From assembly GCA_963749495.1 (NCBI GenBank), contig CAVVMW010000004.1:224001-288000 (forward strand): a stretch of 64,000 nucleotides of DNA, given 5' to 3'. A program made the position numbers and the translations under genes. Positions 20,755 to 39,811 of this stretch are shown here, one piece after another. Under the pieces are notes generated by a model. It was not told the DNA's origin and did not search any database. It worked only from the letters and a program-made list of their open reading frames with translations. The DNA is from an uncultured bacterium. Its GTDB lineage: Bacteria; Verrucomicrobiota; Verrucomicrobiia; Limisphaerales; UBA8199. How positions within the stretch are numbered: position 1 is the first letter of the stretch; each line of letters opens with the position of its first letter.

Positions 20755-20916
20755 GGCCGGTTGCCGCCGGGCTCCGCGCGGGTCTGGCTTGCTCCCAACC
20801 TTCGTCGCAACCTTTGTCGCCTGGGCTCTTTCTCGACAAAGGTGACGACAAAGGCCGCGACAAAGGTCTGGATTTGGGGTTTTTGGGTGCGCGAGCGATT
20901 TGCTCGAGCGCCCACC

Positions 20917-20972
20917 CTGCCGCCTAAAGGCGGCGTTCCGGATGGCTGCGGAACGCCGCCTTTAGGCGGCAG
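20917..20972. repeat. Perfect 24-bp inverted repeat (ctgccgcctaaaggcggcgttccg)
   Basis: Directly visible; each arm is itself partly palindromic. Confidence 0.8.
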
Positions 20973-21010
20973 CGAGGAACTCCGTCCTGCGCCCTGGGGT
21001 TTCAGGGCCG

Positions 21011-21199
21011 TTGACAAAGTTGTAGCGCAGGTTTCCAAACCTGCCGTATCGCCGATTTCCAATCGGCAGGGCGTCGGCATGTCGAGCGCCCCCGGTTTGC
21101 GGACGGCCTGCGGGTTTGGAAACCCGCGATACAGCAGGTTTGGAAACCTGCGCTACGCTGGCGCCCCTGGCGCACGGGCGCGCCGAGCGACTTTGTCAA
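21011..21199. repeat. Intact composite REP/MITE (ttgacaaagt ends enclosing REP family A)
   Basis: Near-identical reverse complement of the split copy 28571-28628 + 31567-31700. Confidence 0.85.
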
Positions 21200-21236
21200 G
21201 GGCCCTGCCTGGGGTTTTTGGGTCCGCGAAAGGGAC

Positions 21237-28493: not shown

Positions 28494-28638
28494 AGCCTGT
28501 ACCAACAGCCCCGCGCGTGGGGGACCTTTGTCGCGGCCTTTGTCGCAGCCTTTGTCGAACCGCGGGGCCATTGACAAAGTCGCTCGGCGCGCCGGTGCGC
28601 CAGGGGCGCCAGCGTAGCGCAGGTTTCCGACGGTGGTT

Positions 28639-30735
28639 TCATACTACACCTGGTGCAATTTCGTTTAGGGCTTGCCGGCTTTTTGATTTGGCGATCCGCT
28701 TGGAGTTGGCCACCCAAGCCCGCAACGCCTGCTCTTGTTGGGCCGTCAACGCGATCCACATCCGGCCGTCGGGTTGCGCTTTTCGAGCTGTCACCAGTCC
28801 GTTCTTGAGCCAATAGTGAACCACGTATTGGCTAACGGCAAACTTTTGGCTCAGTTGCTGCACCGTCAACTCGCCGGGTTGTTGCAGCACTGGGGCCGGA
28901 ATGTGGTGCTTGCACCGAATCCAGGCGACCATACTGACGGTAAAAGCTCGGCCTTTGGCGCTTCGGAGGCCTTCCTGGTTCAGGGTGAGGGCAATCTGGC
29001 GGTCGGTCTGTTGCTGGGCGAGTTGCCGCACTTTGCTCACGAGGGCCTCCGTGTAGCGCCAGCGGTCGGCAGCGTTAAGCGGCAGCTCGACCACGAGGTC
29101 CTCGGTGGCCTCTCCTTGCCAGCGCAAATGCAAGATCGCCTGGTGCGTTGCCGGCCGCTTTTCCAGTGTAATATCCTTGAGCAGCAGCCGCAAAATGCAC
29201 TTGCGCTGCTTGGCGGTCGTGGTGGCCGCTTGCCAGAGCCGCGGCAGGTCCTCGGCCAGCAATCGTACCTGGGCCTGTTGCTCCGCCGACAAGGGCGGGG
29301 TTTGCTTTTCCTGATATTGCCGGTATTGCTGGCGCAACCCTTCGAGTTGCTGCAAGGCGTGTTCCCAACGTTGTTCGAGCGTCGCTGCTACCAGACGGTT
29401 GGCCGGATCAACTTCCTCGAAGCGCCGTTGGGCCAACTGCCCTTCATACTCGGCTCGCTGGATTCTGAGCTGCCATTGATGCTCCAACGCCTGGTCGCGC
29501 TGTTCCACCTCCGCCACGGCAGCCAAGGCGATTTCCACCTGCGCCGGCACCAGCGCCGACAAGATCCGCCGGGCGACGGCTTCATCCAGCAGGTCGCCAC
29601 GAACCGACCAGCAGCCTTTGCCTGCCAGTTCTCGCCGCCGCCAGTTGCATTCATACCAAACCAGGCAACCGCCCTGTCCCACGTAACGCGGGGAGAGCCG
29701 GTGCCCGCACTGACCACAGACCAGCAGACCTTGCAGCAGCGCCGGCCCTTCGCGCGCCGCCGAACCGGCGGCGCCAGGGCAAGCGTTGGTTTGGTTCTGC
29801 GCCAGCCGCTGCTGGTTGGCCAGATATTCCTCCCAGGGGATGTAGCCCGGATGTTGGTTGGGCAGGTTCACTTGCCACTCGGCCAAAGGCATAGAGCGGA
29901 CGGTATTGTGCATCTGGCCAGTGGGCGAGAAGTTTTTGCAGGTTCGCCGCCGACCGAATACATAGGCCCCGGCGTAAGCCGGGTTGCGCAATAGACTCAG
30001 GACGCGGCCATGGTTCAAGCGGCCCCACCGCAACTGCCCGTTCCAGACTCCACCGTAGCTGCGCTTGGGGAAGAGCAACTGGTGCTTGGCAAAATGCTGC
30101 ACCACTCCGTAAGCGCTGGCGGTTTGCCCAAAGCTGCTGAAGACCAGGCGCACGGCGCCCTGCACCTCCTGGTCCGGGTCTAAAACGATGCCCTCGGCCT
30201 CGGCATAAACAAAGCCCACCGGCAGGGGAAAACGCAGTTGGCCTTTGCGCGCTTTGTTGAGCTTGCCGCCCTGGAGGCGGACGCGCAAGAAGTGCAGTTC
30301 GGCCTGGGACATCGTACCCTTGAGTCCCAAGAGCAAGCGGTCGTTGAAATCCCCGGGGTTGTAAGCGCCGTCTTCGTCGATGAGCAACGTGCCCGTCCAC
30401 CCACACAAGTCCACTAGCCGATGCCAGTCCAGATCCGAGCGCGACAGGCGGGAGGCCTCCAGGGCGAGAACCGCGCCCACCTTCTGTAAGGAGACCAGCG
30501 ACACCACTCGTTGGAAATCCGGTCGGTTGGCCATCTGGCTGCCCGAGATCCCCAGGTCGCCGTCCAGAGTGAGTATCCGCTCCGGCGGCCAGCCCAGTTG
30601 AAGGGCCTTGTCCCGGAGCGCGTATTGGCGCTCGGTGCTCTCCCGGTGCTGGCGCACTTGGTTGAGGGTCGACTGGCGCAGGTAAATGCAGGCCAGTTTT
30701 TGGCGATGAGTTTCCTGGACCAACTCGGTGTTCAT
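28639..30735 (-). CDS. Large serine recombinase (resolvase + recombinase + Zn ribbon + coiled coil + C-terminal HTH)
   Basis: YLRQST catalytic Ser, DLGISG, SRLSR, LLQGLLVCGQCG, VDPANRLVAATLE. Confidence 0.93.
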   Translation of the reverse strand: MNTELVQETHRQKLACIYLRQSTLNQVRQHRESTERQYALRDKALQLGWPPERILTLDGDLGISGSQMANRPDFQRVVSLVSLQKVGAVLALEASRLSRSDLDWHRLVDLCGWTGTLLIDEDGAYNPGDFNDRLLLGLKGTMSQAELHFLRVRLQGGKLNKARKGQLRFPLPVGFVYAEAEGIVLDPDQEVQGAVRLVFSSFGQTASAYGVVQHFAKHQLLFPKRSYGGVWNGQLRWGRLNHGRVLSLLRNPAYAGAYVFGRRRTCKNFSPTGQMHNTVRSMPLAEWQVNLPNQHPGYIPWEEYLANQQRLAQNQTNACPGAAGSAAREGPALLQGLLVCGQCGHRLSPRYVGQGGCLVWYECNWRRRELAGKGCWSVRGDLLDEAVARRILSALVPAQVEIALAAVAEVEQRDQALEHQWQLRIQRAEYEGQLAQRRFEEVDPANRLVAATLEQRWEHALQQLEGLRQQYRQYQEKQTPPLSAEQQAQVRLLAEDLPRLWQAATTTAKQRKCILRLLLKDITLEKRPATHQAILHLRWQGEATEDLVVELPLNAADRWRYTEALVSKVRQLAQQQTDRQIALTLNQEGLRSAKGRAFTVSMVAWIRCKHHIPAPVLQQPGELTVQQLSQKFAVSQYVVHYWLKNGLVTARKAQPDGRMWIALTAQQEQALRAWVANSKRIAKSKSRQALNEIAPGVV

Positions 30736-30862
30736 AAGCAGCGTTGGCCGCCCAAGGCGGCGGAGGCAAGGGTGCGCCAGCCCGACGGAACGCCTGGAGC
30801 ATGGTGGCGACCACCTGCGCCACCGGCCGGGGATCGATCCGCAAGGCCGCCGGCTGCATCGC

Positions 30863-31195
30863 TCAGACCTTCTCCTGGCGGCGTAAGAGTTGGCGGTTGA
30901 TGTCGCATATCTGTTCCAACAGATGGCGCACGTGCTGAAAGTTTTTTATCAGGGCTTGGACCTGGGCGTGCTGCTGCTGAGAGAGGTATTGGAGTTGGGG
31001 ACGGCCGTGGGGATAGCTGACCGACAAATAGTATTTGGGACCGTGACCGCGGCCGGAGGCGCAGTGGCAACCGGGCTTGCCGCAGGGCAGGTATCGCTCG
31101 ATGAGCGAGCCGCGAACCACGCGCCGGGCCAAAGGAGGCAGGCGTTGGATCAAGGCCTGGCGTTTGCGGCGCAGGCTGGCGATGGAAGCGGGCAT
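30863..31195 (-). CDS. DUF6788-like small Cys/His protein
   Basis: RGSL.ERY..CGKPGCHC...HGPKYYLS motif. Confidence 0.75.
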   Translation of the reverse strand: MPASIASLRRKRQALIQRLPPLARRVVRGSLIERYLPCGKPGCHCASGRGHGPKYYLSVSYPHGRPQLQYLSQQQHAQVQALIKNFQHVRHLLEQICDINRQLLRRQEKV

Positions 31196-31196
31196 G

Positions 31197-31254
31197 ATTA
31201 TCAGAACAGTTAAATAACTGTTCTGATAATGGATCGGTCAAGGGCATCTGTCAA
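31197..31254 (-). promoter_or_regulatory. Element promoter (TTGACA-N17-CATTAT) with perfect 16-bp palindrome
   Basis: attatcagaacagtta-aa-taactgttctgataat (31197-31230), overlapping the -10 element and ending just before ATG 31195. Confidence 0.6.
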
Positions 31255-31567
31255 CTCCTTTCTGGTTCGAAGAGGCCGGCGGGCCGGACGCCTTCAACTG
31301 CCGCAGCAGTTGCACCAACTCCAGCAGTGCGGGCGCCGACAGCCGGCGCGCGGTCCCCGCGCTCGTCGGCACCGCCTTGTCGGTCCAGTCCTCCAAAATG
31401 GAAAAGGTGCCACCTTCTCCCCCCTCCAGAATCAGCGTGGCCTGACCGCGGTAGCGCCGGGCTTCGACCACCCGGAACCGCTCTCCGCGCCGGGGATGGA
31501 AGGGGTGGGTGATTACCGCCCATCCCAAAAGTTCACCTGCACCATGTGCAGTTCGCACTAACTGTCC
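31238..31567 (-). CDS. DUF5372 (Y4bD/Y4pK)-like protein; 5' end located at the opposite element end
   Basis: ITHPFHP..G..F...WTD...L..L..L motif; no ATG in the integrated state. Confidence 0.7.
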   Translation of the reverse strand, partial: GQLVRTAHGAGELLGWAVITHPFHPRRGERFRVVEARRYRGQATLILEGGEGGTFSILEDWTDKAVPTSAGTARRLSAPALLELVQLLRQLKASGPPASSNQKGVDRCP

Positions 31568-31749
31568 CAAACCTGCTGTATCGCGGGTTTCCAAACCCGC
31601 AGGCCATCCGCAAACCGGGGGCGCTCGACATGCCGACGCCCTGCCGATTTGGAAATCGGCGATACGGCAGGTTTGGAAACCTGCGCTACAACTTTGTCAA
31701 CGGCCCTCTGTCGAACCGGCCAAGTCTCGACAAAGGCGGAAACGAGTGC

Positions 31750-32256
31750 TCAGCGCCGCGGGCTTTGGGCCGGCAGCGGGAGGGTCTCGCCGGTGGCGTT
31801 GGAGGTCGAGTGATAGGTGCCCGGCTGGAGACCGCTGAGGGGATCGGTGGTCTGATAATGGCGCCAGGCGAAGAAGCCTGCCAGCAGCGCCCCCGCCAGG
31901 ATCAAGACTCCCAAGGCCAGCAGGCCGCGGCGCCAATCCACTTTCGAGAGTTGGAGCATGAAGGAGTCCAGCATCCCGCGCGGCTCGTTCGAGAGTGCCG
32001 GCGGTTCGGCGAACTTGGCCGTCTGGCGCAGTTCCTTGTCGAGGTCGGCCATGACCTGCGGCACGTCCAGCTTGAGCAGCGTCGCGCAGGAGCGCACGAA
32101 GCCCCGGATATAGACCGGCGCGGAGAAAATGTCGAAATTGCCTTCCTCCAGGGCGTGCAGATGGTCGGTGCGGATCTTAGTGATCTCCGCCACCTGCTGG
32201 ATGGTGAGACGCCGGGCCTCCCGGCCGTCCCGAAGTTGCTGGGCCACCGTGGACAT
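31750..32256 (-). CDS. RodZ-like HTH membrane protein
   Basis: QLR..RE...TKIR..HL.ALEEG.F.....VYIRGFVRS.A..L.LD followed by a TM helix. Confidence 0.85.
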   Translation of the reverse strand: MSTVAQQLRDGREARRLTIQQVAEITKIRTDHLHALEEGNFDIFSAPVYIRGFVRSCATLLKLDVPQVMADLDKELRQTAKFAEPPALSNEPRGMLDSFMLQLSKVDWRRGLLALGVLILAGALLAGFFAWRHYQTTDPLSGLQPGTYHSTSNATGETLPLPAQSPRR

Positions 32257-32844: not shown

Positions 32845-35800
32845 AGCCAGGCGGCCGATACGGGACGGTGGTAGATTTGCGACAAGGCGCGCGCGTAGAG
32901 CCTGAGCTGGGCCCGATAGAGCCTCACCCGCTCGGCGAGCTCGCCGCGGCCGGCCGCGTCGGTCTTGAAATCCACCAGCCATATCTCGCCCGGCAGCACC
33001 ACGGCCAGGTCGGCCACGCCCTGCACGACGACGAATTCGTCGTCGAGCCCCGGCTCCAGGGGTTCGCCGGTGAGAGCGGCGATTTCTCCGGGCGAAAGGC
33101 GGGCGGTGAAGGCCAGTTCGCGCTGAACGAATTCCGCCTGGGCGCGGACGTTGCGGCCGAGGTCCGATTGCCAAAAGGCCGCCAGGGCCTTGAAGTCGAG
33201 CAGGCCGGCGGATTCAGGCGTCAACAGGCCGGTTTCCTGCAGGCGGCGCGCCTCCCGTTCGAGGTCTTCGGCGCTGCCAGCCCGCTCGAGGGACACGCGT
33301 TGGAGGAAGGCATGGTGGGCGTTGCCCACGTCGGCGGCGGTGGCGCTGGCCCGGCCGGTCCGCTTGCGGGCAACCCGGACCTGGCGCCCCGCCGGTGACC
33401 CACGGTCTGCCGGCCGCGATTCGTCGGGGGCCAATCCGAGGCGCGGCGTTCCCCCAAACGGGACTGCCTCCTGGTCTCTGGCCTCGGCGGCGCGGCGGAG
33501 CGTCGTCACCGAGGTCTTGGCCGGCCTGCGGGTGGCGGCCAGGAAGGGATAGGCCCAAAGGAGGCGTTGTTGGAGCTTGTCCCACGTGTCCGCGTCGGCG
33601 GCGGCCGGGGCCTGGGCTGTATCGGGCGTGGCTGCGGCGGGCTCCAGCAGGCTGGAGTTGTCGTGGATGACCCAGCGGATCAAGGCGTTTTCTCCTCGCC
33701 TGGCCTCCGGGCTGGCCGGGCCTCGGTTTTGGCCAAACCACCGACACAGCCAGTCTGCGTAGCAACCAGCGGAGGCGAGGGTTGGCAGATCGAGGTCCGT
33801 GGGCGGCTCCTGGAGGAGTCTGAATTTGCCCTCCGGGATGGAGCCGCTCAGGATGAGCGTGTCCCGCGCGCGGGTCATGGCCACGTAGAGCAGGCGCAGT
33901 TCCTCGCCCAGCATTTCGTGATGCTGGCGGCCCCGCGCCAGCCAATAGGGCAGGCTGGGGTAGCGTTTGCAGGTGTTCGGCGCCTTGATGCGGGGGCACA
34001 GCCCGTAGGCCTCGTCCAGGATGACCTCCGCGCGCAGGTCCGAGACGTTGAACGGCTTGCCCAGGTCGGCCACGACCACCACCGGAAACTCGAGGCCCTT
34101 GCTCTGGTGGATGCTCATGAGCCGCACGCAATTCTCCTGGTTCACCGCCGCCACCTCGGGCTCGGTCTCCGCCAGTTGCTGCGCCTCGATGAAGCGCAGG
34201 AATCGGAACAGGCCCTGGCGCTGGAATTGGTCGAACTGGACCGCGAGGCTGAGCAGGCGCTGGACATTGGCGTGGCGCTGCTCCCCGCGCCGCTGTGTCA
34301 GGAGCCACTCGGCGTAATGCGTCTCGGTGAGGATGGCCTCCAGGCAGCGGCCCAGCGAGGCCTGGCGGGCCAGCCGCCGCCAGTGCGCATAGCGCTCCAG
34401 GAAGCGCGAGACCTTGTGAAAGGTCCCGTCGCTCAACGAGAACTCGAGCTGGGCCGAGCCTGTTTCCAGCGCCGAGGGTCGAACATCGAGGGTCGAGGGA
34501 CGAGGGGCGAGGGTGGAGGAGCGGGGTCCATTGTCCTCGACCCTCGGCCCTCGGCCCTCCGGCGCCTGGCCGCCTGTGGACCGGCGCCTGACACTTTGCG
34601 CCTCGTGCCATAACACCAGGGCAGTCCAGAAGGGGCCTTTGACCGCCAGGCGGATGGTGGCCAATTCGTCGAGCGTCAGGCCCACCAGTGGGGAGTGGAG
34701 CACCGCCAGCAGGGGCAGGTCCTGCAACGGGTTATCCAGCAGTTGGAGCAGGCTCAACAGGTCGGAGACCTCGGTGCTCTCATAGAATCCGCCCCGGGCC
34801 ACCTGGAGCGGGACATTCAGGCGGGCGAATTGCTTGGCGTAACTCTCGGACTTGCTGGCCGGAGAGCGCAGCAGCACCGCTATATCGCTCCAGGCCACAG
34901 GCCGGAAGGCGCGGCTGGCCTCGTCCCAGACCGGGTGCCGGGAGGCCTGCAGTTGGCGCACGCGCAGGGCGACCAGGCGCGCCTCTTTCTCGGCCTCCTC
35001 CATGTCGCGCACCAGGGCCAGGGCCTCGCCGGCCTCCTCGTCGAGGCCGTCGTCCTCGGGGTTGGGGCCGCCCTTGACGCGCAGGTGCAGCTCCACGCAG
35101 GGGGCCGGGTCGGCGGCGGCGCTCAAGGCACGGCGTTCCTCGGTCGCCCCGAAGCGCAACCAGGCCCGCTCGTCGTAGTCCACACCGCCCAGTTCCCGCC
35201 GCATCAGCAAAGCAAAGAATGAATTGATGAAGCCCAGCAGACTCTCGCGGCTGCGGAAGTTCTCGACCAGTGGGATGGCCCGTCCCTGGGCACCGTGCCA
35301 GGTCTGGATGTAGCCCTGGAAGATGTGCGGGTTGGCGAGCCGAAAGCGGTAGATGCTCTGCTTGACGTCGCCCACCAGGAAGCGGTTGGCCTGGGCGCCC
35401 TCGCGGCTGAGCGCCTCGATGATCTTGTCCTGGGCGGCGTTGATGTCCTGGTATTCGTCCACAAAGACGTAGCGGAGTTGCTGGCGCCATTGGCGGGCGA
35501 TGCGTGTGGGCTGGCGGGTCTGCGGGTCCCAGAGCAACCGGAGGGCGTATTGTTCGAGGTCGTGGAAATCCACCATCCCCAATTCCCGCTTGGCCTGGGT
35601 GAAGGCGGCGGTGAATTCGCGGGCCAATTCGAGCAAGGTGATCATCTGGGAACGGACCGACTCCAATCTTCGGCCAGCGGATCGGCGCCCGCATCGGTCC
35701 GGGCCAGCGAAAGCAGGAACCGGGCTTCGGCCAGGAACTCCTTGAGCGGCTTGAGCCACTGGGTCTTGTGGCCTCGAGGGCATTCCCGCCCGGCGGCGCA

Positions 35801-36583
35801 GATGGTGTCCAGGACCGCGGCGGCCTCGGCGCGGGAGGGGTTGGCCTTGAGTTGGCGGAAGGCGGCGAGGCAGCCGGCGGCAACGTCATTTTCCTGGGCC
35901 TGGCGCTCGAGCAAGGGCCGCCAGCGTTCGCGGCTTTGGGCCAGCGCGTCCAGGAGCCATTGCTGCCATGTGGCCGGTTCGGTCGAGGCGAACAGGGCTA
36001 TCTGGCCGGCGAGCCACCCAGCCGGGTCGGGCAGCGTTTGGGTGTAGTGGTGCAGGCGCAGGACCAGGCTGCGGATGGGTTTGTCCCAGCCGCCGCCGTG
36101 GGCCTGGATGAGTTGCTGCACGGCGCCCGCTGCGCTGGTGTGGCCGGCATAATGCTCCTGCAGGAGCTTGTCCAGGGTCTCCTCCGCCAGCAACCGCGCC
36201 TCTTCCTCCGGCAGGACGGCAAGCTGCGGGTCGAGCTCCAGTTCGTAAAAGTGCTGGCGGATGAGCTGGAGGCAGAAGCTGTGGAGCGTCCCCAGGCGGG
36301 CCGTCTCGAACAGGGCCAGTTGCTCCTGCCAATGCGGGTTGTCTCGATCCCGCTGGAGTTCCTCCTCCAGCCGGGCGCGGATGCGCTGCCGCATCTCAGC
36401 CGCTGCCGCCTCCGTGAAGGTCACCATCAGGATTTGCTCCAGCGACACCGGCGGTTGCTCGGACACCAGGCAGCTCAGGCACCGCTCGACCAGCGTGCGC
36501 GTCTTGCCTGTGCCCGCGCCGGCCACGACCAGGACGTTGCCTCGCGCAGCAATGGCCGTCTGTTGGGCGGAGGTGAAACTCAT
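32799..36583 (-). CDS. addA: Helicase-exonuclease AddAB subunit AddA (frameshift near 35660)
   Basis: AGAGTGKT, TFTEAAA.EM, TLHSFC, VDEYQD, VGDVKQSIYRFR, SIHQSKGLEFP, LYVAMTRA, nuclease QGVADL...VDFKTD. Confidence 0.93.
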
Positions 36584-36667
36584 TCGCGCGAAGACAAGGT
36601 GGGACAGCCAGCGCGGAGGTGCAACGACTATTTAGAGGCGGTCCCAAAAACCCCGCGAGTAGGGCAC

Positions 36668-36747
36668 CTTTGTCGCAGCCTTTGTCGAAACCTTTGTCGG
36701 ATTGGCGATTTCTCGACAAAGGTGCCGACAAAGGCTGCGACAAAGGT
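36668..36747. repeat. 12-bp-periodic REP (ctttgtcg x3 / cgacaaagg x3)
   Basis: Directly visible downstream of the tRNA. Confidence 0.8.
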
Positions 36748-36793
36748 CCGGGATCGGAGCTTTTGGGGCAGGCCCTATTTCCAGGGGCCAGTA

Positions 36794-36882
36794 TGGCGGA
36801 GAGAGGGAGATTCGAACTCCCGGTGCGTTTTAGGCACTCACGCTCTCCAGGCGTGCGCATTAAACCACTCTGCCATCTCTCC
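36794..36882 (-). tRNA. tRNA-Ser (GGA)
   Basis: GGAGAGA acceptor stem, anticodon arm CACGC-CTGGAGA-GCGTG, long variable arm, GTTCGAATC, encoded CCA. Confidence 0.97.
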
Positions 36883-37091
36883 GCCAGGTGCCCCCCACTC
36901 TGGAGAAGCGCCTCAACCTACGCAATATTTTTCCGCGCGCAACTGGCCGGGAGCGCCCCAAATCCTCGCCTGACCATTTCTAAGAACCACGGAGCACACG
37001 GAATACACGGAAAGGAAGGGCGTCTTCCGCGCTCGTCTGGGACACCCCCGGAATCGCAGCAAGGATCCCTTCTTGATCCTGCCTTTCGCGG

Positions 37092-39811
37092 TCAGGGTGT
37101 GGCCAACCTGTAAAAGCGCGCCGGGGCGGCAATGGGCGGGGTGTCTGCAATCAGCATGGTTTGGGCGCTGGCTTGCGCGGGCAGGTTCGTCAAGGTCGTC
37201 CAACAGCCTTGGGTTAACGAGTCCGAGTATTCCACGCGATAGGCCAGGCCCGCCAGGGCGCAGAACTGCAATTCCACTCCGCCGGGCTGGAGTTGGATGG
37301 AAGCGATCGCGAGGTCCGGCGGCGATCCGGCGGGCCGGCCACGAAGGCGGTTTCGACCGAGGCGAGGGACGGATGGCCGTTGGTGTCGAAATAAGTGCAC
37401 CGCCAGAAACAGGTGGCGCCCAGGGTGAGCGAGGCAAAAGGGATCGGGAGAGTCGTCAGGTTGGTTGCGCTGTTCAGCTTGAAGACGGGGGCCAAGTAAG
37501 TGCCATTGGCGGCCCGTATTTCCCAGGTCGTGGTGGCCTGCGCCGGCGGCGGGCTGGCGGTGTGGCTGTAGGGAGAGGCCACGAGGTTGGCCGGCCACGC
37601 TGCGGTGTCGCCGTAGCTCGGCCAGCGGTTGACGGGCTGGGTTGGGCGCGTGAAAACGCCCAGGCCGCATTGCTGATTGACGGAGGTGAGCCGCGCGCTG
37701 GCGTAGGAGCTATAGGTTGGATAGCCGAGCGCGCTGATGTTCCCGGGGAGCAGGAGCGTGTTGTTGAGCAGAAAAACGCGCTCCTTCAACTCCGCGCGGA
37801 AGGCCTTGATGAAGCTGTCCTTGAAATAGTTCGGGCCCCGGTAATTATTGCTGCGATCGCCCACTTCTCCCGCAAAGATCGAGACCGTCGAATCGCCGAA
37901 CATCGCGTCCATGTCCCAAGGCAACAGGCTCCAGTTGCCGTTGACCTGCTGCCACAGGAAGTAATTCTGCGTGGTGTCGTCCCACGGCGTCATCCAGTTG
38001 AGGACCGCCAGGTAGGTCAACATCTTATCCACGTCGAAATGGGCAAGGAAAAACGACCGGAGGGCTGGCACGTTCGGGTTGGGCTTCGCCAGGGTGTCGC
38101 CCCGGGCGGCCCAGATGCCTTCGAGCATGTCGCGGAAAAAAGTCCAGCCCTTCCAATCGTGATCCTGGATGGGGTAGGTCCATTGGTCGCGCTGGAGCGT
38201 GGTCCAGTACGGCGGCTTGGGCGGCAGCACCGAGCCGTCACCTACGCCGTAGGGCCCTTCGCCATTGGATTCGATGGTGCCCATGCTCTTGTAAAGTTCA
38301 CCCGGCTGCTCCAGCGGTTGGCCGGGGTTGAGCAGTTGCTGCTCGAGGTGGTAACGCTCCAACAGGTGCTGGTTGTAATCCTCGATTTGCAGGCGGCTGA
38401 TCCCACTGTTGTTGTTGAGGTACAGATCCACGTGGGTCGTGACTGGCGCCGGCAAACCGGCCGCGCGGAACAGCGCATAGGCGGCCTCGTTATCCGGGCC
38501 TTTGTCGGTCACCATGAGCGTGCTCTGATTGTTCAGCGGGTTATAGCGCGGCAAAAAGATCTTGAAGGATTGGCTGCCGGCACCGCGATTATAGCGACTG
38601 CCGTGGTAGCGGACCTGGACGTCGCGGACCACCCCGTCGCACACGAAGACGGCCGGCTCGGTCGCGTCCCAGGAGGCCCGAGGATAGCCGGGAGGATCGG
38701 GCGAGGTCACGCGCCTGGGTGCCTGGCTGATGTTGGCCGCCAGTCGGTTCAAACTGGCGGTCGAGATGAACAGGTCATAGCTTGGCCGATTCGCCGAACG
38801 CACCGGCGACACGAACCAGCCGTGCCAGGCGAAGGGATCATCAGCGCGAGGGGAAGCCACTGCCGCCGGGCCGGCCCGCTCGGCCCAGATGCGGTAGCGG
38901 ACCAGCGTGCGGGCGGGAAAGCCCGGCACTGTGACCTGGAACGTGGCCTGGCCGGGAGCGCCAACCGGCTGCATCACGACGTTCGTGGTGGTCAGGTTCG
39001 TGGCATTCAGGTTTTGAAGGAAGTACTCGAGCTGAACCGAACCCAGCTCATTCGTCGCCGAGAAGACCGCCGCCACCTGCACGGCCTGGTTGGGCCGGAT
39101 CATCGGTTGCCCGTCGCCGGCTTGGGACACGCTGAGCTGAACCACCACCGGCAAAGGCGGATCGCGGTGAACGGCGTTGGGCTGGCCGGGGCTGGGTTCA
39201 CCCGGCAAGGGCGAGGCGAGCCAATTCGCCGGGTCGTCCCCGGAAGCGGTAAAACTGACGCGCTCAAGCGAGCGGCCGCGGTACTGGTAGTTGGTTTCGG
39301 GCACGCCCGTCCACCGCTGGCCCACCCCCAAGGCGTTTGCGCTGATTGGCCAGGGAAAAGCGGACGAATAGGTTACCGAATCGACCTTTTCATCCAAGGC
39401 GTTGCGCAGGTTGAGGGTTTCTCCCTGGTTGCTGAGCTGCCCGCTGTAAGGGCCATAGAGCGTGGCTTGCATCAGCCCGTAGGCGCTCACCGCCGCCAAG
39501 CGCGCCGGGTCCCGCGCCACCACCAGGAATTCCCCGGGCCCGATGCTGGCGCCCGTCGGAAAGGTGTAGTGAATGGCGCTCGTCAGCCGCCAACCGCTCA
39601 AATCCACTCGGTTGGAACCGAAGTTGTGCAGTTCCACGTACTCGTGGACCTCCTCGGTCAGGTCCATCACCGGAGTTCCGTCCGGGTTGAAGGCCGGCGC
39701 TTCCACCGGCGCGTACATGATCTCGCTGATCACCACCGGTTCTTGCGCCGTTACCGCCAGCGCCAGGCCTGAAGCGCCAAGCACCGCGAGGAATTTGATG
39801 GTCGTTTGCAT
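37092..39811 (-). CDS. Secreted lamin-tail-domain / CotH kinase family protein (frameshift near 37335)
   Basis: Signal peptide, VVISEIMY...EYVELHN (LTD), NYFLW...LLPWDMD (CotH), terminal RFYRL motif in the shifted frame. Confidence 0.85.

Follow-up and report, generated by a model that had tools for sequence, protein, structure and literature searches.

The stretch analysed here (the window; 64,000 nt in whole, from contig CAVVMW010000004.1 of an uncultured Verrucomicrobiota bacterium, to which all positions refer unless another contig is named) contains a mobile element of 2,940 bp (28629..31568, minus strand; by convention these boundaries include one copy of a CC core, 31567-31568). It carries three genes, all on the minus strand, for a DUF5372 protein, a DUF6788 protein and a large serine recombinase (LSR), and it is inserted into a hairpin of a multicopy intergenic repeat. 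New here is that the element has targeted this hairpin specifically and six times in one genome, while its LSR is nested inside a clade that targets reverse transcriptase (RT) genes.

The LSR gene (28639..30735, minus strand) encodes 698 amino acids with the three Pfam domains Resolvase (PF00239, E = 3.3e-18, residues 16-166), Recombinase (PF07508, 6.6e-15) and Zn_ribbon_recom (PF13408, 2.6e-9), and with a weak Pfam match to a MerR-type helix-turn-helix (HTH) at residues 624-654. Across 19 sequences of the LSR family, Y18, R20 and S22 are invariant, as are the cysteines C340, C343, C363 and C375. A profile built from the 19 members matches the SPbeta integrase YokA/SprA over residues 61-530 (E = 2.3e-13), and the last ~170 residues form a family-specific extension in which Pfam HTH_17 is found in many relatives. 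By all sequence criteria tested the enzyme is a large serine recombinase, as had been proposed in an earlier reading of the DNA letters alone (the sequence-only reading), and the junctions described below behave accordingly.

The two small genes lie upstream. The DUF6788 gene (30863..31195, minus strand; 110 aa; PF20586, 3.6e-26) encodes a protein with the motif C-G-K-P-x-C-x-C, invariant in our alignment. The body of the DUF5372 gene (31238..31566, minus strand; PF17342, 1e-12) has its stop at 31238 and a frame that is open to the element end; its product is 46% identical to a Paraburkholderia protein named 'Y4bD/Y4pK family protein' by NCBI. NCBIfam gave no match for either small protein. 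DUF5372 is predicted to fold into a small beta-barrel plus a helix (pLDDT 80.7), for which Foldseek returned at best weak similarity to barrels of the ribosomal protein eS4 type (best E 4.5e-3), and the predicted DUF6788 fold (pLDDT 83.5) found no PDB match better than E ~1; neither predicted fold assigns a function. A sigma-70-like promoter, TTGACA-17-CATTAT (31226..31254, minus strand), is the sole promoter-like site in 28500-31750, compared with a mean of 0.3 such sites in shuffled sequence. Between this promoter and DUF6788, abutting the start codon of the latter, stands a perfect palindrome with 16-bp arms and a 2-bp centre (31197..31230), a candidate operator; related palindromes (ATCAGAnCAGTTA..TAACTGnTCTGAT) occupy the same place in relatives. 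The half-site of the palindrome shares ACAGTTA with the element end adjoining the core, and since the motif is common to both, the LSR itself might bind the operator-like palindrome.

At the left junction, the CC at 28627-28628 is followed by GACGGTGG..., and at the right junction ...CTAACTGTC runs into the CC at 31567-31568 and then into aaacctgc. Scripted removal of 28629-31568 yielded a sequence that can be aligned to the intact repeat (21000-21215) in reverse complement, with few single-base differences and one 1-base gap over the repeat body, in agreement with the sequence-only reading, which had claimed that such a removal restores the repeat. Its counts for the attachment sites could be reproduced as well: the inner arms of the restored attB, gcaggttt and aaacctgc, are inverted around CC at 8/8 positions (14/24 for 24-nt arms), and the arms of the attP formed by the joined element ends match at 20/29 positions, exactly as stated before. 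Random pairs of 29-mers from the element averaged 7.7 matches (sd 2.5), and none of 20,000 reached 20 or more. The CC core is present on both sides of the element in 6/6 copies and single in empty sites, indicating that the element produces no target duplication. The central dinucleotide of serine integrases is the point of strand exchange and sets polarity, and these enzymes leave no target duplication. From the junctions, attL, attR, attB and attP are all definable, so that the earlier description of a compact element, akin to an insertion sequence (IS) and with fully definable att sites, holds.

The sequence on either side belongs to a miniature inverted-repeat transposable element (MITE), which the mobile element has split in two. 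The left part (28563..28628, plus strand) comprises a terminal inverted repeat (TIR; ..GGGGCCATTGACAAAG..), a GC-rich module and the left arm of the hairpin that we term type A, up to and including the core CC at 28627-28628. It aligns with the intact MITE at 21011-21199, is the same flank at 6/6 element copies and, together with the first element bases, makes up one hybrid att site. The right part (31569..31709, plus strand) contains the type A right arm, inner hairpins, an unused type B hairpin (GG core 31674-31675) and the other TIR. Directly outside both MITE ends stand the same 9 bases, GTCGAACCG, the left copy of the MITE target-site duplication at 28554..28562 and the right copy at 31710..31718.

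Target repeat and occupied hairpins

The genome that contains the window (G000; 11.37 Mb in 31 contigs; a bin, 88% complete with 5.8% contamination) carries six full copies of the element, which by blastn are pairwise 99.4-99.97% identical (1-18 differences) and vary at 21 positions in total. All six have identical junctions, a single orientation and the same place in the repeat, and the sequence beyond the repeat differs from site to site. The fixed CC core assumed in the sequence-only reading is thus seen in all copies mapped, with neither variable duplications nor unrelated sites. The LSR frame is intact in 5/6 copies; in the sole damaged one (contig C16, 34-2974), the last ~24 LSR codons are out of frame owing to an extra base at element position ~84. 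The element was not found in three genomes of the same genus, and an LSR protein search at E <= 1e-50 found matches in 4/41 genomes (G000, G007, G012 and G023).

The target repeat is ~205 bp long and bounded by TIRs (..GGGCCATTGACAAAG..), with a 9-bp target duplication at the window copy. Among 37 empty copies, the TIR pattern located the ends of 20 and missed 17; 12 of the 20 thus evaluated have an exact direct repeat of at least 8 bp at their ends. These features, including target duplications of 9-10 bp, identify the repeat as a MITE. The sequence-only reading had introduced it as a host REP palindrome serving as attB, and its description as a multicopy intergenic repeat stands. 'REP' is a misnomer, however, because the repeat has TIRs and target duplications and shows no association with RAYT genes: for the best-scoring 18 of the 24 Y1_Tnp matches in the genome, the hairpin was found within 900 bp in 0/18 cases, and a REP in the RAYT sense was rejected on these grounds. 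The repeat may nevertheless have the 'safe harbour' character ascribed to it. Parts of the MITE recur in many genomes of the order: 24/41 genomes matched the query, and among the matches listed, those outside G000 and G007 fall into its flanking-repeat parts. In Rfam, the intact repeat gave sub-threshold matches to miRNA-type hairpins only. A match to the eukaryotic snoRNA SNORA17 at 20914-20975 (29.4 versus a 29-bit threshold) was dismissed as spurious, as it falls on a neighbouring bacterial hairpin, a different, long and perfect hairpin repeat that adjoins the intact MITE.

Which hairpins are used depends on their surroundings. The 18-bp palindrome has 156 unoccupied exact copies in the genome, in two main contexts. 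In the type A context, ggggcgccagcgtagc-palindrome-tgtatcgcgggtttcc, 19 empty sites are identical to the reconstructed 24+CC+24 attB and 37 have at most two mismatches; the type B context, ttgacaaagtYgtagc-palindrome-Ygtatcgccgatttcc, accounts for ~120 sites with 9-13 mismatches from attB. Insertions occupy 6/43 type A sites versus 0/~120 type B sites (Fisher p ~2e-4). Types A and B diverge on the left side from 14 bp off the core outward and on the right side solely at 19-21 bp. On this comparison, a functional attB has to reach out to these positions, which makes it about 33-45 bp long, centred on the CC in the type A hairpin. This is the usual length of a serine-integrase attB. The idea that the palindrome alone is the attB therefore has to be given up: 156 exact 18-mers are empty and every insertion is in one flank context. 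For the same reason, four of the five further candidate sites that had been proposed in the window belong to classes never used in this genome. The fifth (core site 21142) lies within the intact MITE at 21011-21199 and is an empty attB (21118..21167, minus strand) that matches the 24+CC+24 site at 50/50 positions. Sites 21035 and 31675 are of type B, with the palindrome but 12/50 context mismatches, a class never occupied in G000; site 19797 is degenerate, having the variant palindrome gcagacttCCaagtctgc and 12 mismatches, as is the site at ~57490, a hairpin minus one base.

How six copies came to sit at the same place can be read from their flanks. The MITE halves around occupied copies differ pairwise by 2.4-8.8% (mean 5.4%), whereas the element interiors differ by 0.03-0.6% (mean 0.29%), which argues for separate LSR insertions rather than composite copying. 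Outer flanks and target duplications are distinct among the occupied loci, and flank variants are found as near to the junction as 22 nt on the left and ~35 nt on the right, some of them recurring in empty copies. These sequence data argue for six separate integrations into pre-existing MITE copies. It is conceivable that the MITE and its cargo move together as a 3.15-kb composite transposon by means of the MITE's own transposase, and the TIRs and target duplications do imply that a matching transposase exists or existed. Such transposition should have produced near-identical MITE halves, yet the halves are ~18 times more divergent than the cargo, and their variants are common to empty copies. 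We regard composite transposition as extremely improbable and have rejected it on the basis of flank divergence.

More thought has to be given to a single chance insertion into one MITE that then spread by homologous recombination (gene conversion) via the ~65-bp and ~140-bp MITE flanks, since this would likewise yield the same junctions, a single orientation and one MITE subtype. Homologous exchange between copies seems to occur, as suggested by swapped target duplications on contig C14, and many MITE copies share one and the same 50-bp attB; the latter makes short tracts conceivable and as such speaks against separate integrations. However, the occupied flanks keep their own variants at 22 nt to the left and ~35 nt to the right, with the contrast of 5.4% versus 0.29% noted above, so that conversion would have had to break off, left and right, within a few tens of bases in each of six events. 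The intact LSR frame of 5/6 copies also speaks against spread by conversion. In our view gene conversion is improbable, and separate integration by the LSR is preferred.

The two copies on contig C14 are inverted relative to each other (154408-157347, minus strand; 193780-196719, plus strand) and lie 36 kb apart; acagtggat is found on one side of each copy and tgcggggc on the other. A swap of this kind would be expected if recombination had inverted the segment between the copies, or if the assembly contained a mis-join. The genome also holds a second, distant element of the superfamily on contig C18 (~75379-78700; locus L033), whose LSR is 43% identical. It has the right end ..GTGCAGTATGAAACC.. 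and a DUF5372-like body with ITHPYHP, and it splits another repeat family at the apex of the hairpin GCAGGCCgttGGCCTGC. Both elements of this genome, the one in the MITE hairpin and L033, thus lie in hairpins with GCAGG...CCTGC arms.

The usual family target and the specificity of the enzyme

Relatives of the LSR of similar length number at least 8,000, mostly on ~3 kb contigs, and the LSR matches 534 plasmid records; no printed description of a DUF5372/DUF6788/LSR family was found in the literature searched. We compared 80 genome and 80 metagenome loci. The relatives occur in Acidobacteriota, Burkholderiaceae, Planctomycetota, cyanobacteria and metagenomes, and they share the gene order DUF5372-DUF6788-LSR, a length of ~2.7-3.0 kb, a 2-bp core, the operator palindrome and a split DUF5372 gene. 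The element ends are conserved across phyla (in LSR sense, GAC(A/G)GT..AACTGCAC and ..TATGAAnCCACCGTC), and in one Paraburkholderia relative the annotation reads 'Y4bD/Y4pK family protein - DUF6788 - recombinase'. In some of the shorter relatives (2.7-2.8 kb; L038-L042, L046, L055, L059, L075 and L098, from Planctomycetota, cyanobacteria and Desulfosarcina), simple criteria revealed no DUF6788-like open reading frame (ORF); the middle gene may be dispensable or replaced there.

The target of these relatives is a different one. When attB was reconstructed for 16 close relatives with both flanks, the opposite strand translated in most as GK(L/M/V)RP(L)(G/S)IP..DR, and longer flanks encode Pfam RVT_N and RVT_1, the latter interrupted at position 14-16. 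Among the 41 close relatives, defined by 79-91% identical LSRs, 27/27 readable right flanks start with the RT motif, and 32/33 readable left flanks fit a loose RT pattern, the remaining one translating as an RT variant; hairpin flanks were found in 0/27 readable right and 0/33 readable left flanks. These flanks place the usual attB of the family in group II intron RT genes, at the stretch that codes for LGIPT. By homology, the element in the window is a member of the DUF5372-DUF6788-LSR family, and it departs from the family in its target (the MITE hairpin, 6/6). The hairpin repeat that had been named as the target is hence the true one for the six copies of this genome, but not the family norm. 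Seven loci (L035, L041, L046, L054, L060, L066 and L069) have a CC instead of a GG core in LSR sense; these lineages use the same RT target in the opposite orientation to the GG-core lineages, which is what polarity set by the core dinucleotide alone would predict. With the change between CC and GG, one codon of the split DUF5372 gene changes too.

In a quick maximum-likelihood tree of 33 LSRs, the enzyme of this genome is sister to L126 (SH-aLRT 95). The clade that contains it (support 100) has 22 further rows, all of them close relatives and located in an RT gene wherever the flank is readable. Because of this nesting among RT-targeting relatives, the hairpin appears to be a derived, recently acquired target, and a change in the specificity of the enzyme may have accompanied its acquisition. 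Two intact group II intron RT genes of this genome (C6:668130, plus strand; C4:523013, minus strand) carry the canonical site, and neither site is occupied; their left halves are identical or nearly identical to the left half used by the closest relative. On a weight matrix built from the RT attB flanks of the relatives, these two sites score +58.8 and +49.1 bits, type A sites -16.9 and type B sites -28.1, against a background with a mean of -53 bits (sd 13).

The enzyme need not have changed at all. It may have kept its RT specificity and used the MITE hairpin as a weak pseudo-attB on account of number, with ~43 hairpin sites versus 2 RT sites available. The inner half-site of the hairpin, GCAGGtTt-GG-AA, resembles the left half of the L126 RT site, GCAGGgTg-GG-AA, and the hairpin, being palindromic, offers this L126-like half-site twice. 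Simple arithmetic adds that, at equal affinity and with 43 versus 2 sites, 0/6 insertions in RT genes would arise about three times in four. Against this stands the matrix: an unchanged enzyme should strongly prefer RT sites at +49 and +59 bits over a hairpin at -17, yet both are empty, and none of the 27 right and 33 left readable flanks of close relatives is a hairpin. The vacancy of the RT sites is therefore unremarkable at equal affinities, but surprising if the enzyme still preferred its ancestral site. We hold use of the hairpin by an unchanged enzyme to be possible, though with somewhat less than even prospects.

If the preference of the enzyme did change, the substitutions responsible should be among its 31 residues not seen in the 22 close relatives. 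Ten of these are at positions invariant in the relatives (Q31R, L77V, P180A, Y263R, K424R, R513C, G542E, K554N, P562T and R626Q); five of the ten fall into the C-terminal extension, with R626Q in the HTH, where Y640H is located as well (21/22 close relatives have Y there). The C-terminal excess of private changes (5/72 invariant columns versus 5/336, p = 0.018) is a post hoc result to be taken as a lead only. A count of 31 private residues is ordinary, the relatives having 9-34, which counts in favour of the pseudo-attB explanation. Use of the hairpin by this LSR in general has against it that the hairpin scores poorly on the canonical RT attB matrix, given that the LSR is ~90% identical to RT-targeting ones. 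On this evidence, we see about an even chance that LSR preference has really shifted toward the hairpin. The more far-reaching proposal of a natural attB-specificity change at the tip of the tree, with a few private substitutions as determinants, two ancestral sites ignored and, in addition, a split gene that switches between excision and integration, is tentative and on the doubtful side.

Serine integrases are valued tools of genome engineering because the protein alone reads its sites, and the evolution of attB preference is poorly understood. The present case offers a natural pair with the same attP ends, ~90% identical enzymes and different targets; the four att sites can all be specified, and the differences between the hairpin-targeting and the RT-targeting enzymes come down to 31 candidate residues. 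With six insertions in one genome, it is moreover an internally controlled example from a large family of mobile elements.

Split DUF5372 gene and a probable circular form

In the integrated element, the DUF5372 frame has no ATG within the element; the sole possible internal starts would be GTG 31558 and TTG 31528, and the GTG is not conserved in relatives. Its 5' piece is found at the opposite end (28629..28642, minus strand), where an ATG (28642-28640) overlaps the LSR stop TGA (28641-28639) and is followed by 11 more bases to the element end. It takes a joint between the two ends to bring this ATG into frame with the DUF5372 body. We surveyed 52 elements with both ends located, the present one included, and in 46/52 the same ATG opens a frame of 103-121 codons with an HPFHP motif. 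The other six comprise four without an ATG in the search window (one with GTG, three with probably mis-paired ends) and two with truncated frames. The frame across the joint is kept with both core variants.

A plausible course of events can be formulated from these features. As inferred from how large serine recombinases work, the LSR would excise the element as a circle, whose joined ends form attP with imperfect inverted arms around the 2-bp core, and would integrate this circle by exchange at the core dinucleotide, without target duplication. Use of the hairpin would then reflect either a changed preference of the LSR or a palindrome that imitates one half of the usual attB twice over and prevails by number. 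The internal promoter with its palindromic operator may drive DUF6788 and LSR in both states, while DUF5372 would be made only from the circle, its start codon being coupled to the LSR translation stop. DUF5372 could thereby report the excised state and either bias the LSR toward integration or shut the operon down. It may act as a cofactor of directionality, oppose excision or serve as a repressor, and each of these roles is at present a guess.

Several observations count against this scheme as a whole. No match to a circle joint was found in 210 fetched loci and the 31 contigs of the genome. Of 13 sequencing runs listed with matching sequence, none is on record as RNA; the contigs of four freshwater-sediment runs contained no joints, but only fragments and other MITE copies, and are as such uninformative on circles and expression. 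Neither an empty-site polymorphism at an occupied locus nor a transcript was seen, and two of the six copies touch contig ends in a bin of the completeness and contamination given above. Weighing these points against the junctions, the six copies and the split frame, we consider it likely, and are fairly confident, that this is an IS-like LSR element that excises as a circle, integrates at the CC of the type A MITE hairpin, a recently acquired target, and completes its DUF5372 gene in the circle.

Comparison with known systems

The nearest counterparts are the DUF5372-DUF6788-LSR elements in RT genes, which are alike in gene order, ends, 2-bp core, split gene and operator palindrome and have LSRs up to ~90% identical; they sit at the LGIPT motif, whereas the element described here sits in a MITE hairpin. 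More distantly related is a four-gene repeat of plasmid pNGR234a from Sinorhizobium fredii NGR234 (two copies, at 33989-37258 and ~267 kb), which we take to be NGRIS-4. Common to both are a DUF5372 protein (39% identity over 49 residues), small genes and an LSR (42% identity over residues 7-649), but the repeat has four genes, and where DUF6788 would stand it encodes an HTH protein and a small 'transposase'.

Tn4451/Tn4453 (TnpX) and Tn5397 (TndX) are LSR-moved transposons that excise as circles and reinsert at a 2-bp core. Tn4451 and Tn5397 carry cargo genes and have loosely defined targets, in contrast to the defined ~33-45 bp site of the present element. In Tn4451, the circle joint creates a promoter that the linear form lacks; in our element, the circle would complete a coding sequence instead of a promoter. 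Phage serine integrases (Bxb1, phiC31, SPbeta SprA) share the domain architecture, dinucleotide polarity and lack of target duplication. They differ in that there is no phage at this locus, that the LSR has a ~170-aa C-terminal extension with an HTH beyond the part matching SprA, and that the element has no identified directionality factor.

With regard to the choice of target, the closest parallel is found outside the serine recombinases. Insertion into REP sequences is reported for IS621 and ISPpu9, of the IS110/IS1111 family (PMC11208160, PMC11187229 and 10.1101/2025.01.17.633520). The likeness concerns small size, a circular intermediate and homing to a multicopy palindromic intergenic repeat, and the difference lies in the machinery, a DEDD recombinase with a bridge or seek RNA there as opposed to recognition by a serine recombinase protein alone here. 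No DEDD domain is present in the element, whose three ORFs match only the LSR, DUF6788 and DUF5372 families in Pfam, and no Rfam family matched the intact repeat. An element guided by a serine recombinase protein has thus colonised a multicopy intergenic repeat, as RNA-guided IS110 elements do.

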